NCBI GenBank assembly: GCA_963666365.2
Contig: CAXXNF010000002.1
Coordinates: 1,824,001 to 1,888,000, forward strand
Origin: Syntrophales bacterium
Lineage (GTDB): Bacteria > Desulfobacterota > Syntrophia > Syntrophales > UBA2210
Length of the DNA stretch: 64,000 nucleotides
Direction of reading: 5' to 3'
Under the pieces are notes generated by a model. That model searched no databases. It was not told the DNA's origin and worked only from the letters and a program-made list of their open reading frames with translations. Every line of letters begins with the position of its first letter. The stretch's first letter is position 1. Both the position numbers and the translations under genes were made by a program. Shown piece by piece: positions 26,679 to 34,442 of the stretch.

Positions 26679-26739
26679 GTCCAACGCCCGGCATCAACGG
26701 CCCGAGGTACGAGGGTCCGCTTGGATGCCGATGTTAGGA
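26679..26739 (-). repeat. attC site
   Basis: GTCCAAC; CGGCATC.A.CGG/CCGCTTGGATGCCG stem; GTTAGGA. Confidence 0.9.
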
Positions 26740-27393
26740 TTTACTTTCCCCTTCAACTGAAAATGCACCTTGTGCGTCTGAGAATCGCGTACATAAATCA
26801 TCGATACGTGAGGTAAAATCCATCGTTCCAGTAGTTTTACGATCAGTCCAGTATTTTGCAGTAAGTGTTTCTGGTTTCAGACTCGGCCCGTGAGTCTCAA
26901 TGATGATGGCACCTTGGTGCATCTCACTAATTCTTTCGTCTCGGAGGTGAACATTGGGCTCATTAGTATAAACCCCGATAATTTGGAAACCGTTACCATT
27001 GGGTGACGGTCTTACATGGTCCGCGATAAACCATGACTCAGATTCAGGGGTCATTAGATGCATTTGAAGCTTAGAAAGCGTCTGCTTGACGCCCATATAG
27101 CAAACAATCATTGGGACACGTTCATTGGTTTCGGGGCTTACATAACTTGATTGGAGTTCGACACGCCATGTTCCCCTAAGATCGGGCCGCTTGACGAACC
27201 AACCGTGAAGAAATGAGTGACGCCATAAGACAAATTCAAAGAGTAATCCGAGCCCGACTAAGCAGCTGACAACAACACTGAAGGGGCGGGCATGAGACCA
27301 AGATATAGGTGTGCCCTGACATAACAGCACAATCAGCCAAATGATCACGGCAATGGCAAGGAAAGCTGTAATATGGAGTCGATCAAGTTTCAT
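26734..27393 (-). CDS. cap15: CBASS 2TM beta-barrel effector, Cap15-like
   Basis: Two N-terminal TM helices, PDLRGTW, KQT, YTNEP, HQG, YWTDRKTTG; ATGA overlap with the CD-NTase stop. Confidence 0.8.
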   Translation of the reverse strand: MKLDRLHITAFLAIAVIIWLIVLLCQGTPISWSHARPFSVVVSCLVGLGLLFEFVLWRHSFLHGWFVKRPDLRGTWRVELQSSYVSPETNERVPMIVCYMGVKQTLSKLQMHLMTPESESWFIADHVRPSPNGNGFQIIGVYTNEPNVHLRDERISEMHQGAIIIETHGPSLKPETLTAKYWTDRKTTGTMDFTSRIDDLCTRFSDAQGAFSVEGESKS

Positions 27394-28316
27394 ATTGGCT
27401 TTACTCCAACATAATCCCACGCCGCATTAATAAAAGCGTGTGCTTGTTCTCGTGTCCATGGTTGCACTACATGGAAGAGGTATTTGATGTCATCAACTTC
27501 ACACCATTTATCGCAATTTGTCACTTCGTTAGTATTCTGCCATAGATATCTTAGCACTGACTGGACGCGGTCTACCCAAGTATACTTATCAAAACACCAA
27601 TTTGGTGCATTCCATACAAGACATTCAAGAAGATAACCAGGAACGGCTTTTGCCTGATCGTTGCCTAAGTCCTCCAATTCAATACGCAATTTCTTCAAGA
27701 TGCGAACCATTCCTTTAAAGCGTTGACTTGTGGAGCTGTTTTTTGAGACACCATTTTCGTAGTGCAACGGAGTAGATGGCCAGTAATCTACTAGACGCTC
27801 AGGATAATTCTCGATTCTGCGTATGCTATTGTCGGGGTAAAGAGCAACTCCTGCACGATAACTACCATTGTCCCAATAATGTCGAAATTCGAAAAGTGGC
27901 ACAACATCAGCTTCAACTCGTGTCTGAGTTGCTTTGATATCAAAGGCCTTGTTACCTCGTTTTACTGCAGCGATGCCAAAGTAATCGACGAGGGCTCCCT
28001 CTAACTCATTTTTGAACTGTGAGAAAGAGTAGCCAGCATCACTGTTTCCAAAATCGGCATGCTTTTTCCCTTCTGGATACTGTGAGAGGAAGTAATCGTA
28101 GAGCATCACACCAACGTCTACGTCGCTGTCTTGACGAACATTAACACGGTTGCGAAACGATCCTTGTGTGAAGACTTGTATTTTTCTATGTTGAAGTTTC
28201 GGGCTTTGACTAACTGCGGCTTTAATAGCTCGAATGACTCGCTCACAGCGTTCCTGCTCAGTCTTACTGGGCGACTGTGCCCAAAAGGTAAAAGTACTCT
28301 CCCAATCACGACTCAA
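27390..28316 (-). CDS. CBASS CD-NTase (cGAS/DncV-like nucleotidyltransferase, CdnE-like)
   Basis: QGSFRNRVNVRQDSDVD, EADVVP, NYPE..H..NG..KN, YLLECLVWN. Confidence 0.9.
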   Translation of the reverse strand: MSRDWESTFTFWAQSPSKTEQERCERVIRAIKAAVSQSPKLQHRKIQVFTQGSFRNRVNVRQDSDVDVGVMLYDYFLSQYPEGKKHADFGNSDAGYSFSQFKNELEGALVDYFGIAAVKRGNKAFDIKATQTRVEADVVPLFEFRHYWDNGSYRAGVALYPDNSIRRIENYPERLVDYWPSTPLHYENGVSKNSSTSQRFKGMVRILKKLRIELEDLGNDQAKAVPGYLLECLVWNAPNWCFDKYTWVDRVQSVLRYLWQNTNEVTNCDKWCEVDDIKYLFHVVQPWTREQAHAFINAAWDYVGVKPI

Positions 28317-29112: not shown

Positions 29113-30012
29113 TTACTCGATGGACGCTCCTTTACCGAAATTACATTCATTGCAGAGCGTTCGTAGATTATCAATTACCGTCTTTCCGCCTTTTGACCAA
29201 GGAACGATATGATCAACATGTAGCTCAAGGTTTGCTGTATTGGCCGGGCTTCGACCGCATTTTTCACATTTGTAGTTTGATCTCTTTAAAATTTTCCATC
29301 GACGCCCAAGAGGTATATCTCTTCTCTCTGGAACTGGTACTGATTGTTTCCTCTGCTTCGGACCATTAATGGTCGGAGGCGGAGCGGGCTGGTCGGAGTT
29401 TGCATATTCCACAAATGCCTCAAGAGCTTTATTCCACGTACCCCACTTTACAATATATGCTTTTCCACCAACTTTAGACGGCGGTGCTGACATTTCTCGA
29501 TAATATGGCTCCCTACCAAGGGTAGACCACATTAACAAAATATTCTCGTAACACTCTTCTTCTGTATATCGTCGCCCATGTGTTTTTGCTTGGAGTCCTG
29601 CACGCTTTAATGCCGCATTCCATGAGCCGAATCTTCTGCGAACTGTATCTGGACTTATAGTTGAGTGATCTCTGAACTCATTAACTGTTAACGTTTCCTT
29701 TCCAAGCGTTCGCGCAACTTCTATAACTTGTAAAAGCACCTCATCATCCATTGCTTTTGCGCCCTGGCGTTGAGTTTTTTCAGATAATGTTGGCGTATTG
29801 TATAAATGAGGGAATCCGGAAATCGTTAGTGCGTTTTTCCAACTTACGAAGCGTCTACGAACAGTGGTAAGACCTACTTTAGAATGTTTTTGGAACTCTG
29901 CGGTAGAAAGGGTACCGCTTGATACAAGCCTACAAACTCTTTTAATTTCTGCAATTAAATTATCATCCGAATAATCAGAAAGACGTTTTAGTTTAAACGA
30001 AAATTTTTTCAT
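29113..30012 (-). CDS. HNH endonuclease with N-terminal homing-endonuclease-associated repeats
   Basis: Three RRF.SW..AL-like repeats; CEKCG...LHVDHIVPWSKGG...NLRTLCNECN; start inside the cassette boundary GCTCTAAC (30036). Confidence 0.85.
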   Translation of the reverse strand: MKKFSFKLKRLSDYSDDNLIAEIKRVCRLVSSGTLSTAEFQKHSKVGLTTVRRRFVSWKNALTISGFPHLYNTPTLSEKTQRQGAKAMDDEVLLQVIEVARTLGKETLTVNEFRDHSTISPDTVRRRFGSWNAALKRAGLQAKTHGRRYTEEECYENILLMWSTLGREPYYREMSAPPSKVGGKAYIVKWGTWNKALEAFVEYANSDQPAPPPTINGPKQRKQSVPVPERRDIPLGRRWKILKRSNYKCEKCGRSPANTANLELHVDHIVPWSKGGKTVIDNLRTLCNECNFGKGASIE

Positions 30013-30035
30013 AATTGTGCTGTAAAAATTTTTGT

Positions 30036-30163
30036 GCTCTAACGGGGCCGCGGCTGAGCTGCGGTCCGAAGAAAATTGTAATTTTCTGAGGACCGGCAGA
30101 TCAAGCCGCGTGTTCGTCCGCCGCAGGCGGCGGCACGTGGCGACAGTCGCGGCCCCGTTCATC
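30036..30163 (-). repeat. Long attC site containing a sigma70-like promoter (copy D, intact)
   Basis: AACGGGGCCGCGGCTG/CAGTCGCGGCCCCGTT arms; TTGATC (30104-30099) N18 TACAAT (30080-30075). Confidence 0.8.
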
Positions 30164-30188
30164 CCGACCGCTTGCGGTCGGGATGAAC
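30157..30188. repeat. 32-bp palindrome forming the body of a gene-less cassette
   Basis: GTTCATCCCGACCGC-TT-GCGGTCGGGATGAAC between two attC sites. Confidence 0.85.
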
Positions 30189-30245
30189 GGCCAGCATCAG
30201 CGGCGCGGGCGGCAGCCCGCGTCCGCCTGCATGCTGTGGTTAGCC
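30182..30245 (-). repeat. attC site
   Basis: GATGAAC; CAGCAT.CAG.CGG/CCGCCTGCATGCTG stem; GTTAGCC, complementary to GGCTAAC at 31249. Confidence 0.9.
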
Positions 30246-30262
30246 CAATGTGTTTTCATATT

Positions 30263-30560: not shown

Positions 30561-31232
30561 TTACTGATGATCTCGGATAATACGAGCAATTGTATCCAAA
30601 GCTCTTGTAAGTTGAACTGCGACTCTTTCCCAAGCTACTCTTGCTGCTTTATCTCCTGATGAGTAACCCCACATATTTGACTCACGATGTTCAGCGACAA
30701 TCGGCATCGTAAAAGTAATTGGATTCTGCCCTCGATTATCTTGCACTTCCAAATCAAGCCATGCAGCTCCGTTCCACCAGCCTTCGCCGGAAAATGTACA
30801 CCCAAAAACCGTCTGCTCAGACGATATAGATCCAACAACAGGACCCCATGGGCCAACTGCATTTATCTTTGCTGAATCTACAGAATTTAAAAAATCAACT
30901 GATGACACTAAACGACTTCCAAACGAAGAACCCAGTGTTACAATTCGAATGCGAATAGAAACTCGACCGGCAGGTGTTTTTTGGAAGTAGTCTGTCCATT
31001 CAATAGATGAACCATATAATCGGCTTAGGTCCGTCTGAAGTATTGCTGCTGCATCATTTGGTATTTGCGATGTTCGCCCATCGAATACAGAACCAAGGAT
31101 TGCAGGAGATATTACGAGATGTGTACGCGGAGTTCCAGAAATGATAGGGCAAATCACTCTTTCTGTGGCACACCCATTCAATAATGCTAAGGTAATGAGA
31201 ATTGTTGAAACACAACATGAGATTTTGATCAT
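30561..31232 (-). CDS. Putative lipoprotein
   Basis: Signal peptide with LNGC lipobox; GGAGGAG RBS. Confidence 0.7.
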   Translation of the reverse strand: MIKISCCVSTILITLALLNGCATERVICPIISGTPRTHLVISPAILGSVFDGRTSQIPNDAAAILQTDLSRLYGSSIEWTDYFQKTPAGRVSIRIRIVTLGSSFGSRLVSSVDFLNSVDSAKINAVGPWGPVVGSISSEQTVFGCTFSGEGWWNGAAWLDLEVQDNRGQNPITFTMPIVAEHRESNMWGYSSGDKAARVAWERVAVQLTRALDTIARIIRDHQ

Positions 31233-31252
31233 TGTGTCTCCTCCAGAAGGCT

Positions 31253-31468
31253 AACATTTAAGGTTGTATGCGGAGTTAGCCATAATTCCGCATACAATCC
31301 TGTTGGACTAAGCCGCAACTCGGTGTTTCCCTATGGGGATTCAATAACGCGGCTTCGTCCAACATTTAAGGTTGTATGCGGAGTTAGCCATAATTCCGCA
31401 TACAATCCTGTTGGACTAAGCCGCAACTCGGTGTTTCCCTATGGGGATTCAATAACGCGGCTTCGTCC
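31253..31468. repeat. Exact tandem duplication of a 108-bp unit (attC + short gene-less body)
   Basis: 31253-31360 = 31361-31468; stem TTGTATGCGGA.TTA/TAATTCCGCATACAA. Confidence 0.95.
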
Positions 31469-31680
31469 TATTTTTCCATTAAAATATCGATATGGTCATT
31501 GATTGAATAGCGTTTTTACGAAAAAGCCCGGCAAAAAATGCTCCTTTGTTGCTGTGAGCGCTGTTGATGCTGCCTTCGGTGGCGTGGATGTTGAGACATA
31601 TCTCCGAAAAGGGCGCACAGATCCGACGCAATCTTTTGGTGTTCCGATATTCGACTGCAATCATTGATCAACATCCCTTT

Positions 31681-32865
31681 CTATGGAGGCCACCTACCGG
31701 TTTGTGACAGAAGAACCTCCTTCCGCACCATGATTCCCTTGCCGCAATGGGGGCATATCCGAAGATCAACGCCGGTCACCCGGAGGAATGTCTCTTCCCA
31801 GGGTTCTTTGGGGGAATCATTTTTCTCTGCCTGTTCCGGTATGCCGAGGAGCTTTTTGCACTGAGCAAGCTTTCTCTTTCGGTTTCGGTTGCTCAGCAGT
31901 CCGTAATAGCGGATCTTCATGAACTGATCGGGGAGAATGTGCAGGAGAAAGCGACGGATGAACTCGAAGGCGTCGAGGGTCATGAGCTTGGTTGCGCCTT
32001 CCTTTGACGGATCGCGCACTCGGAAGGTAACATCGTGAGTGCCTATCCTAATAATTCTGTCGTTCGAGATGGCCACACGGTGGGTGTAGCGACCGAGATA
32101 CTCGATGACATGTTTTACGCTTCTGAAAGGTTCCTTGCAGTAGACAACCCACTCTTTGCGATAAAGATCGGCAACGAACTGTCGAAAGATCGCCCGTTCC
32201 TTTAGGGCCTCGATCTTGCCGGGGAATCTCAGATCGGCTGCTTCGTAGGCTTTTTTGAGATAGTGAAGAAACTTACCCCGAAAGAGCCGGGAAAGAACCT
32301 TGACCGGCAGGAAGTAGTCCTCCTTCGCCGGAATCCATCGCTCCCCGTCAAGGGAAAGTCCGCCGCCTGTCACGATGCAGTGAACATGGGGATGATCGAT
32401 CAGGCTCTGCGACCAGGTGTGCAGGATGGCAATGCAGCCGATCTCAGCACCCAGATGACGATGATCGCGGGAAAGATCCATGATGGTCTCGGAGGCGGCC
32501 TTGAAAAGTATGTGGTAGAGGGTCTTCTGGTTCCGCAGGGCCAGCGGTCGAAGTTCCTGGGGAATCGTGAAAACGATATGCACGTAGGAAATGGGCAGCA
32601 AGTCCTTTTTTCTTGCCTCCAGCCACAGCTCTCGCTTCAGTCCCTGGCATTTGGGGCAGTGGCGATTCCGGCAGGAGTTGTAGGAGATCCGAACGGCACC
32701 GCAATGGTCGCATTCATCCACATGTCCGCCAAGCGCGGCGGTCCGGCATAGTTCAATGGCTCGCATCGCCCGGTGGTGTCGTCCGGCCATTCTGCCGCCA
32801 TGGATATCTCGATAGGCCTCCCCAAATTCACGGAAGACCTGGGCCACTTCCGTGGTTCCACGCAT
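31681..32865 (-). CDS. IS91-family (Y2 HUH) transposase with Zn-binding N-terminus
   Basis: CRTAALGG, NSCRNRHCPKC, HPHVH, YLGRY, IRYYG. Confidence 0.95.
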   Translation of the reverse strand: MRGTTEVAQVFREFGEAYRDIHGGRMAGRHHRAMRAIELCRTAALGGHVDECDHCGAVRISYNSCRNRHCPKCQGLKRELWLEARKKDLLPISYVHIVFTIPQELRPLALRNQKTLYHILFKAASETIMDLSRDHRHLGAEIGCIAILHTWSQSLIDHPHVHCIVTGGGLSLDGERWIPAKEDYFLPVKVLSRLFRGKFLHYLKKAYEAADLRFPGKIEALKERAIFRQFVADLYRKEWVVYCKEPFRSVKHVIEYLGRYTHRVAISNDRIIRIGTHDVTFRVRDPSKEGATKLMTLDAFEFIRRFLLHILPDQFMKIRYYGLLSNRNRKRKLAQCKKLLGIPEQAEKNDSPKEPWEETFLRVTGVDLRICPHCGKGIMVRKEVLLSQTGRWPP

Positions 32866-32879
32866 GAAACGGCGACCCG

Positions 32880-33734
32880 CTAAAGAACGCTGTCCCGCGA
32901 GGCGGCGATCACGTCGAGGGGATTGGCGATCCGTTCAAAGTCCTTTCGAGAGAGGTGGAGGTAAACGGCCGTAGTCTTGGGGCTGGCGTGCCCCAGAAGC
33001 CGCTGTATGTGGTACAGGTCCGCCCCGTTCTCCAAGAGATGGGTGGCAAAGCTGTGGCGCAGGGTATGGACGCTCCCCGCTTTCCTAACGCCCGCTCTGA
33101 GCAGCGCATCTTTAAAGGCTTTCTGGACGCTTGACACTGAAAGAGGCGACCACTTGTCTTTGCCGAAGAAGAGCCAGTTCACGGGATGGCACTGCGACCA
33201 GTAAAACCGCAGTTCTTCCAGGGTCCGTTTGGCCAGCAGGGTGTAGCGGTCTTTGTTGCCCTTCCCCTGGCGTATGCGAATCACCATGCGCTCGCTGTCG
33301 ATGTCAGACACTCTCAGGTGCACGGCTTCATTGAGCCGCAATCCTCCCGAGTAGATCGTCATGAGAATGGCCCGATGCTTCAGATTGCCGACGACCGAAA
33401 GAACGGCCCGCACCTCCTCCGGCGAAAAAACCGCAGGTAGGCTCTTTTGTTTCTTCGCACGAGGTATCCGGTAGGAGATCCAGTCGCGCTTCAATGTCGT
33501 CTCATAGAAAAACTTCAGGGCGCTGTAAGTCTGACTCACCGTTGACTGAGAAGCCTTCTTCTCTTCGATGAGATAGTGAAGATAGGTCTTGATCTCTTCT
33601 TCTCCCAACGTCTCCGGCGACGCCCCAAAGTGACGCACAAATCTGCGCATGTGCTCCAGATAGCATTCCCGCGTCCTCCGGCTGAGGTGGCGCAGCTCCA
33701 TATCGCGTTTCATCTGATCGCGCAGTCTTCCCAT
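32880..33734 (-). CDS. Tyrosine recombinase (XerD/IntI-related, without the integron-specific insertion)
   Basis: GLRLNE, GKGNKDR, HTLRHSFATHLLE, LGH, TTAVY. Confidence 0.9.
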   Translation of the reverse strand: MGRLRDQMKRDMELRHLSRRTRECYLEHMRRFVRHFGASPETLGEEEIKTYLHYLIEEKKASQSTVSQTYSALKFFYETTLKRDWISYRIPRAKKQKSLPAVFSPEEVRAVLSVVGNLKHRAILMTIYSGGLRLNEAVHLRVSDIDSERMVIRIRQGKGNKDRYTLLAKRTLEELRFYWSQCHPVNWLFFGKDKWSPLSVSSVQKAFKDALLRAGVRKAGSVHTLRHSFATHLLENGADLYHIQRLLGHASPKTTAVYLHLSRKDFERIANPLDVIAASRDSVL

Positions 33735-33868
33735 ATCTTTTCTCCTTTCTTGCATGAATGATGAATCATCCTTACAAAAAGAAGAACGATCAGGACAGCA
33801 ACAATGTACGCTATTCAATTGTCAAAGAACGACCATTTTTACTTAAAATACCGCCGCGTAGCGGCTTA

Positions 33869-34020
33869 GTTCAACAATGAGTAGATTGTTTCTTCGTATC
33901 AAAATTAGGCAGCAATGTTGCGGGATAAGTACCCGCTCGTTGCGTTGTCATAACTACAATTATTACAGTTAATTGGATCTTTTAACTCATTTAATCTGTG
34001 GTGTTATATTGTTTCCATGT
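33869..34020 (-). promoter_or_regulatory. Putative attI / Pc region
   Basis: AT-rich interval between the intI stop and the first GTTGAAC core; GAAACAAT repeated at 33885-33892 and 34008-34015. Confidence 0.5.
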
Positions 34021-34038
34021 AATACCCTTACACTTTTT

Positions 34039-34127
34039 TTACAAGTCGTCCACGGGGCTTTTCACGCCCTTGCCTCCCCTATTAAGAACGTGGGTATAGA
34101 TCATCGTTGTTTTGACATCTTTATGAC
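34039..34127 (-). pseudogene. intI: Integron integrase C-terminal remnant
   Basis: [26 protein letters not shown] is the characteristic IntI C-terminus; nothing integrase-like upstream. Confidence 0.85.
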
Positions 34128-34442
34128 TTTGTTCTTCTGAAACTCTTGTCATCATACCGGGCACCGCTGAATGGAACATGACGCCGTTTGTTTTCTGATG
34201 TCGTCGAGGTATGTGCGGTTCGGACACCACTATGTTATATGACACACGATATCCCTCTCTACCGGCGAGGGTCCGAACGTTTTGGAAGGTTGTGAATTCA
34301 TTCTATGCCAAATTTGTCTTTTGATTGCAATATATTTATTTTTTTGTAGTATGGTACGCACAATATTTGAAGACGTACTGGAAAGATCGGGAATGAACTC
34401 TCTTCTCCCGCAATAACCGACATCGAAAGGAGCACAATCGCC

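Follow-up and report, generated by a model that had tools for sequence, protein, structure and literature searches.

What is the element that fills the first cassette slot of an integron in a Syntrophales genome, and which of its two enzymes put it there? The stretch analysed (the window) comprises 64,000 nucleotides (nt) of a Syntrophales bacterium (GenBank assembly GCA_963666365.2, contig CAXXNF010000002.1, positions 1,824,001 to 1,888,000). The element lies on its minus strand at 31361–33875, parallel to the cassettes and between a truncated intI/attI region and the first cassette. The unit is genuine and intact and appears to have moved recently; it belongs to the IS91 family, has an IntI-like recombinase as well as an att-like end, and sits at the integron crossover point. 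The reading preferred here, at a probability of roughly 0.65, is that of an active-looking IS91-family insertion sequence (IS), with the IntI-like recombinase upstream of an HUH-Y2 transposase, which moves by a transposase-driven rolling-circle cycle and targets a short word beside a structure like its own origin (ori).

Extent and position of the mobile unit

31361–33875, minus strand: whole mobile unit, about 2512–2515 base pairs (bp), borders ambiguous within a shared GTT/AAC triplet
33876–34041, minus strand: putative attI region, from the intI stop to the G↓TT crossover (the arrow marks a border or cut), defined by position only; 166 bp without a recognisable gene
34042–34143, minus strand: C-terminal remnant of intI, 34 residues, in the same direction as the cassettes (TIGR02249 positions 282–315, E 7.8e-10; 42.8 bits to 281–315)

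A genome search found a second copy of the unit at C2:438266–440783, 99% identical. When the flanks of both copies were aligned, identity ran from window position 31361 to 33875, a 60-nt hairpin at the right end included. Read in gene direction, the unit extends from G↓TTGAAC.. to ..TAAATG↓TT. Public runs, compared as assembled contigs, agree with these limits: contigs break at the unit borders, at 33875 in run X1 and at 31361 in run X5, where the contig carries a ~96.5% relative of the unit and stops exactly at 31361. A joint in run X5 (33879 to 34132) rests on 28 letters and looks like the same locus in a close relative rather than an independent insertion.

The preliminary description of this DNA had ended the element at 31410 and taken the sequence at the right border for the inverse core of the next attC. 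Both points were wrong. The 60-nt site (31416–31357) is the element's own end, because the second copy and the X5 contig both reach exactly 31361. The same description reported no target duplication; this is correct apart from the triplet GTT (AAC on the other strand), which is present at each of the two junctions. It is all that the two junctions have in common when the two copies are compared, and the cut point is therefore ambiguous by 3 nt. Alignment of the left flanks of the two copies revealed no convincing similarity, and therefore no evidence for a shared attI-like sequence.

The placement of the element in the first slot after a putative attI was borne out: it begins at G↓TT, and the 34-residue remnant at 34143–34042 is an IntI-type C-terminus, unlike that of the IS recombinase. 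No full-length IntI above the family cut-off was found in a TIGR02249 search of the whole genome, in which the best matches were the recombinases of the elements themselves. These features point to a probable integron with a decayed intI gene.

Recombinase and transposase genes

32880–33734, minus strand: tyrosine recombinase, 284 amino acids (aa), open reading frame (ORF) open to 33818; IntI/XerA-like without the IntI insertion
31681–32865, minus strand: IS91-family HUH-Y2 transposase, 394 aa

The preliminary description had recognised an element made of a tyrosine recombinase and an IS91 transposase, and both genes, separated by a gap of 14 nt, proved to be real, intact and equipped with the catalytic motifs of their families. 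The recombinase probably starts at 33734, since its relatives are mostly 283–284 aa long (range 268–295). It matches PF00589 (3e-37) and PF13495 (2e-24), and the catalytic residues R133, K158, H223, R226, H249 and Y258 are invariant in 13 diverse homologues and all present in the window's protein. Judged by these residues, the recombinase is conserved and catalytically intact. The transposase matches PF04986 (8e-63), PF14319 (4e-31, an N-terminal zinc-binding domain) and NF033538 (463 bits against a cut-off of 125); its HUH motif reads HVH and its Y2 motif YLGRY.

Profile scores of the recombinase were highest for the integron-integrase model (215 bits) and XerA (211), against 167 for both XerC and XerD. 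The protein is nevertheless not an IntI by the family threshold (215.4 bits against the TIGR02249 cut-off of 265). It aligns to the model in two segments, positions 3–177 and 239–314, and the stretch between 178 and 238 is missing. A preprint (10.1101/542381) describes this stretch as IntI-specific and as required by IntI for recognising DNA specifically, and places IS91-borne recombinases with IntI in an 'integron-like' subgroup.

Ends, repeats and hairpins

33861–33875, minus strand: left terminal repeat, on the termination (ter) side; 7-nt box GTTGAAC followed by TAAGCCGC, the same motif as at the left ends of relatives
33854–33864, minus strand: small GC hairpin CCGC-TAC-GCGG, a ter-like subterminal palindrome by the left end; CCGC-loop-GCGG is kept in relatives
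31413–31468, minus strand: first ori-side palindrome, GGACGAAGCCGC, 32 nt that hold CCCCATAGGG, then GCGGCTTAGTCC
31410–31424, minus strand: right inverted repeat, GCGGCTTA followed by box GTCCAAC; subterminal, not the end
31357–31416, minus strand: 60-nt attC-like hairpin, GTCCAAC-AGGATTGTATGCGGA-loop-TCCGCATACAACCT-TAAAT-GTTGGAC, whose final 6 nt already form the beginning of the next unit

On the minus strand the left junction reads G↓TTGAACTAAGCCGC-TAC-GCGG at 33875. The 15-bp inverted repeats with one mismatch that had been described earlier were found again (GTTGAACTAAGCCGC at 33875–33861 and GCGGCTTAGTCCAAC at 31424–31410), and a repeat search extends their arms to 23 nt at 87%. Their interpretation as the ends of the element stands for the left repeat, which is terminal, but not for the right one, which is subterminal. 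Allowing 2 mismatches or fewer, the window contains 5 matches to GCGGCTTNGTYCAAC, where 1.03 would be expected and 1 of 100 shuffles gave as many. This count is weak when taken alone, because three of the five are exact copies inside a duplicated 108-bp segment; the real support for the repeats is that they recur where related elements end.

About 210 bp of non-coding sequence separate the transposase gene from the first ori-side palindrome. Subterminal palindromes are present as in IS91, one on the ter side (33864–33854) and two on the ori side (31468–31413 and 31416–31357). At the same time the unit has the borders of a cassette, being bounded by G↓TT and carrying a 3' attC-like site with complementary RYYYAAC and GTTRRRY boxes. 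The boxes of this 60-nt hairpin are complementary at 7/7 positions in a scan with our own script, and it folds at -18.4 kcal/mol. It is shared by the second copy and so moves with the element.

When the two ends were joined in silico as a circle, the repeats paired around the hairpin, with folds of -39.4 and -41.3 kcal/mol for the two strands of this family (family 1) and of -28 and -26 kcal/mol for a second family in the same genome. The family 1 fold has a bulged spacer and a second stem beside the 7-bp box, which is the geometry of attC. In such a circle, according to the model, the joined ends would form one long attC-like hairpin with the ori/ter joint at the G↓TT of the 7-bp box.

Related families with the same architecture

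A recombinase-transposase pair was present in 73 of 115 loci fetched, from Acidobacteriota, Alpha- and Gammaproteobacteria, Ignavibacteriota and the window's own class. Terminal repeats passed the score and distance filters in 44 of the 73 pairs, and a CCGC-type motif occurs in most, not all, of these 44. The ends could be fixed from several copies each in three families, namely family 1 and the following two. Family 2 is a 39%-related recombinase-transposase element with two copies in the window's genome (2432 aligned bp at 99.6%), and it runs from G↓TTCAAG TAAGCCGC-TAC-GCGG to CCCCTATAGCCC GCGGCTT CTTGAAC, the hairpin and ATTTG↓. The third is a 55%-related element of genome G015, from the same order, with four loci at three distinct sites (two loci share flanks); it runs from GAAGAAC TAAACCGC-TAC-GCGG to CCCCATAG..GCGGCTTA GTTCTTC, an 80-nt hairpin and ATTCGAAA↓.

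A single layout is common to the families. The left end consists of a box, TAAGCCGC and the small hairpin, followed by the recombinase and then the transposase; the right end has a CCCCATAG region, GCGGCTTA with a complementary 7-nt box, a hairpin of 45–95 nt, a spacer of 4–5 nt and a final G. The CCCCATAG motif ahead of the right repeat is found in the G015 family, family 2 and ISAzo26 as well. Two short contigs, L096 and L051, span from the left-end motif to a point about 80 nt past the right repeat.

These comparisons bear on whether the unit could be a plain integron cassette, that is, an IS91 element joined to a captured attC and moved into the first slot by the host's now-decayed IntI. 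The exact G↓TT to G↓TT borders, the 60-nt site with the consensus boxes GTCCAAC and GTTGGAC, and the first position beside attI and an intI remnant are all as expected of a cassette. The hairpin, however, stands at the same place in every family with fixed ends, including copies far from arrays and copies in targets that are not attC. In these families its outer box always complements the element's own left box, so that the hairpin co-evolves with the element. Nor is mobility confined to IntI and integron att sites, since relatives sit at non-integron sites and the genome holds two copies 99% identical without an above-cut-off IntI; no intI remnant was seen beside the second copy. A captured attC is, on this evidence, quite improbable.

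Forty of 80 distant recombinase loci had no IS91 transposase (tblastn), and all 40 were excluded from the counts. Three of them that were inspected appear to be stand-alone recombinases. Distant homologues at L018 (4449–5819), L022 and L073, from Bacteroidota, Gemmatimonadota and Methanosarcinales, have no adjoining IS91 transposase. At L018 the recombinase has a longer ORF (456 aa), with small co-oriented ORFs behind it. Loci of this type may be stand-alone integron-like platforms.

Where the elements insert

Empty sites were rebuilt for insertions with placeable ends and read by eye in the orientation of the element's bottom strand. The set of insertions of GTT-type elements was hand-curated (n = 11), and the relatives in it are not fully independent. 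In five of the 11 the element interrupts an attC-like hairpin, with the break in the first box at AA↓C (L108, L115, L117, L122 and family-2 copy b). The split sites read CCCTAA↓C...GTTAGCT in L115, GCATAA↓C...GTTATGC in L108 and CTAA↓C...GTTAGGC in L122; L117 is a weak case, its outer boxes matching at only about 4/7 positions. One further insertion is the window's own junction between attI and cassette (GGCTAA↓C). Two sites are doubtful (L103, L107), and three are not att-like: L111, family-2 copy a and L002, the second family-1 copy.

Members of a sister subfamily begin with GAA. In all seven independent insertions of this type (G)AAA comes directly after the element, which stands at the end of a dispersed, non-integron repeat of ~55 nt; G015 gives 40 matches to this repeat at E ≤ 10. 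Nine uninterrupted copies of the repeat were examined in G015, and they continue with GAAA in five cases, AAAA in two and other letters in two. The repeat has the form ..CACCTACAAGTCCWCA..ATTGAGGATTAC..TT↓GAAA and is found in G015 at C2:39166, C7:1461401, C7:1144181, C7:1054319 and C9:90354, among others (L131–L140). It may be REP-like, a remnant of some other element, or regulatory.

In 9/11 GTT-type and 7/7 GAA-type insertions the three letters that follow the element repeat its own first 3 nt, and the cut triplet co-varies with the element's own first triplet between the two subfamilies. The elements are thus site-selective, and the favoured sites of GTT-type members are, from their sequences, integron recombination sites. 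The preliminary description had proposed a parasite of integron sites. This survives in part, through the five insertions in attC-like hairpins (L117 weakly) and the one at attI; on the other side stand the three sites that are not att-like and the GAA subfamily with its non-integron repeat.

A chance landing of an IS with a target word of 3–4 nt on the GTT of a cassette border would also explain the position at attI. GTT is a frequent word, and three of the 11 GTT-type sites are not att-like, but five of the 11 share the same base of attC-like hairpins (one weakly), another is at attI, and the GAA subfamily used one repeat family in 7/7 cases. That one defined base of rare sites should be reached this often is, on an informal judgement, unexpected for a 3-nt word, and chance is accordingly rated as very improbable.

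Transposase or recombinase at the junctions

In the available text of PMC13181058, IS91 makes no target duplication, has a palindrome by the ter cleavage site and one or two palindromes at ori, uses the target words GTTC, CTTG and GTCC, and has a bottom-strand single-stranded circle as its functional intermediate. The four letters after the right repeat of the present elements are these same words: GTCC in family 1, GTTC in the G015 family and CTTG in family 2. A transposase-driven cycle is favoured because the junction features all fit IS91 as described in that source. Beginning at the hairpin (ori) end and finishing at the left (ter) end, the transposase would release the bottom strand as a single-stranded circle, and would paste this circle at a short word matching the element's first three bases, GTT here and GAA in the sister subfamily. 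Insertion would be preferred where the word adjoins a hairpin or a sequence resembling the element's own ori end, and the attC sites and attI junctions of integrons would offer such targets.

Several observations weigh against this account. Cutting by the transposase and crossover by the recombinase cannot be told apart from the junction data, since within the shared triplet the positions they predict lie no more than 3 nt from each other. Two scripted tests of left-flank hairpins against random positions were not discriminating, as raw energy favours long windows, and the tally of att sites therefore rests on the 11 sites read by eye. Neither family-1 site (window, L002) has a hairpin beside the cut, and in the fold of the rebuilt empty window site no hairpin closed at the attI junction; this is a poor fit to a target resembling the ori hairpin. 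The direction relative to cassettes also varies, the window element being parallel to them and family-2 copy b antiparallel to the adjoining ORF of 469 aa.

The junction data fit a recombinase crossover equally well. In this alternative the transposase again makes a bottom-strand circle, but the element's IntI-like recombinase is the integrase: the ends fold like an attC, and one strand is exchanged at G↓TT with attI, attC or look-alikes. The joined ends have the geometry of attC: the 7-bp box with the joint at its G↓TT is paired to an RYYYAAC box, and a bulged spacer and another stem come after it. Integration by attI x attC recombination places a new cassette in the first slot at attI, which is where the window element is found, parallel to the cassettes. 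The recombinogenic strand of attC is the bottom strand. The active IS91 circle is of the bottom strand as well (PMC13181058). Among the profile models, those for integron integrase (215 bits) and XerA (211) match the enzyme best, ahead of XerC and XerD (167 each). IS91-borne recombinases belong to the 'integron-like' subgroup according to the preprint (10.1101/542381), and the catalytic residues of the enzyme are kept in 13 diverse homologues.

The recombinase lacks, however, the IntI model stretch between 178 and 238 which the same preprint gives as needed for DNA recognition (10.1101/542381). The suggestion in the preliminary description that it may stand in for the lost IntI or mobilise downstream cassettes is not supported by a protein without this stretch. 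The recombinase is also not needed to explain the junctions, because a comparable word rule is obeyed by classical IS91 elements, which have none. Family-2 copy b seems to run antiparallel to its adjoining ORF, which is not expected from IntI-type integration, and the GAA subfamily targets a repeat that does not look like a hairpin. Integration by the recombinase is thus a possible but doubtful explanation.

A broader and tentative idea, likewise rather unlikely, is that the elements are integron-cassette mimics coupling two single-strand DNA machines, the IS91 circle folding like an attC and the element's own IntI-like recombinase integrating the folded strand at attI or attC. If true, this would provide a living model of an integron integrase and attC hairpin system arising from, or giving rise to, a transposon.

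Relation to known systems

The closest named element is ISAzo26 of Aromatoleum aromaticum EbN1 plasmid 2 (NC_006824), with a transposase 51% identical to that of the window and a recombinase gene directly upstream. Its ends are the same too (GTTGGACTAAACCGC ... CCCCATAG ... GCGGTTCAGTCCAAC and a hairpin of ~85 nt), and NCBI assigns its transposase to the ISAzo26 family. The left end of ISAzo26 abuts a perfect 24-nt palindrome (CCTTATGGAAAGCTTTCCATAAGG; L143 920–950, NC_006824), another hairpin directly by an insertion point. Relatives on Clostridium plasmids (about 56% identity) are annotated by NCBI as 'IS91 family transposase' beside 'site-specific tyrosine recombinase/integron integrase'. 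ISShvi3, ISSod25, ISWz1, ISSde12 and ISMno23 are presumably members of the same recombinase-bearing IS91 subgroup.

Classical IS91, IS801, IS1294 and IS1294b share with the window element the HUH-Y2 transposase, the absence of target duplication and the ter and ori palindromes, along with the words GTTC, CTTG and GTCC and the bottom-strand circle as far as the available text of PMC13181058 describes them. In contrast, they have no recombinase (IS91 has orf121 in that place), and the window element differs in the 15-nt inverted repeat that joins its two ends around the ori hairpin. No preference of the classical group for integron hairpin sites is described in the literature covered. Integron cassettes and IntI resemble the present system in the G↓TT borders, the imperfect palindrome of 60 nt that carries RYYYAAC and GTTRRRY boxes at the 3' end, the first-slot position and a recombinase that scores best against the integron-integrase model. 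They are unlike it in that the window recombinase remains below the cut-off (215 against 265 bits) and lacks model positions 178–238, and in that the unit has its own transposase and is found outside arrays as well.

Site-specific invasion of integron recombination sites is shared with the IS1111-attC group and the group IIC-attC introns. The enzyme of IS1111-attC elements is a DEDD transposase and that of IIC-attC introns a reverse transcriptase/ribozyme, both unrelated to the enzymes of the window element, and we know of no att-like end in either group. To our knowledge, no mobile elements besides these two kinds are generally cited as homing to the recombination sites of integrons. Both are named as attC invaders in the available text of PMC9229058.

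Already known, then, are IS91 members with an upstream recombinase, present in public records, and the grouping of such recombinases with IntI in the part of the preprint that was available (10.1101/542381). For recombinase-bearing IS91 elements, no description of an att-like end, a target rule or targeting of attC or attI was found in full-text literature, of which only part was accessible, with subscription journals and ISfinder outside it. A widespread IS91 subgroup with an att-like end, carrying the closest relatives of IntI and landing on the crossover base of attI and attC, would be a third homing kind. Such a group bears on the disruption and rearrangement of cassette arrays, on the role of the recombinase in these IS91 members and on the origin of the integron integrase. 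It also matters for annotation, since the element's hairpin and leftover stumps can be mistaken for attC sites or empty cassettes, an error that was made when this locus was first read. Specific to the window are the attI junction parallel to the cassettes by a decayed intI, the two families in one genome and the tandem 108-bp stump described next.

Leftover pieces of the element

31253–31360, minus strand: the final 108 bp of the element, present once more on their own (a stump or a miniature); head to tail with the unit and 100% identical to 31361–31468

The 108-bp unit runs AAC...GTCC. It can be a head-to-tail tandem stump left by deletion between 12-nt imperfect direct repeats (GCGGCTTCGTCC and GCGGCTTAGTTC) or else a miniature produced by termination at that pseudo-ter. 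Three registers of the cut are conceivable: before, inside or after AAC. A cut after GTCC would suit the 108-bp unit, and family-2 copy a fits the other two; given its possible origin by deletion, the 108-bp unit therefore decides nothing on this point. Elsewhere in the genome, a 187-bp copy of the ori end (88%) lies behind an unrelated surface-protein gene (L003), and a 45-bp copy of the hairpin was also found (L005).

Integron surroundings

30561–31254, minus strand: first ordinary cassette, starting G↓TTAGCC (31254–31248), with a ribosome-binding site and an ORF at 31232–30561 (223 aa, no Pfam family)

Small co-oriented ORFs follow downstream of the element, and the G+C content is lower, 0.40–0.49, in most 1-kb bins of 1–15 kb and 27–32 kb. 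A home-made and crude attC scan of the window and the whole contig returned only the element's hairpin and one clean 83-nt attC (28480–28398, boxes CCCTAAC/GTTAGGA). Presumed cassette borders have in common GC-rich intergenic modules of ~190–250 nt (30013–30262 on the minus strand; also at 2515, 4062, 7275, 10915 and 14138), which contain several nested hairpins and are much longer than the usual attC. Two genes of the presumed array, at 26734–27420 and 29113–30162 on the minus strand, encode a protein with a Cap15-like cyclic-dinucleotide receptor domain (PF18153, 4.5e-13) and an HNH endonuclease with homing-endonuclease repeats (PF18780, PF01844); the array thus seems to carry genes of defence type.

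Two further C-terminal fragments of integron integrases were detected in the same genome, at C2:1791625–1791738 (plus strand, E 7.8e-9) and C2:1674932–1675230 (plus strand, E 4.3e-9), and the genome may hold several decayed integrons. A block of three ORFs (about 113, 536 and 82–96 aa) occurs at C2:435415–437732, by the second family-1 copy, and at C2:2182601–2184876, by family-2 copy b. From its ORF sizes it looks like another insertion sequence, possibly IS66-like.

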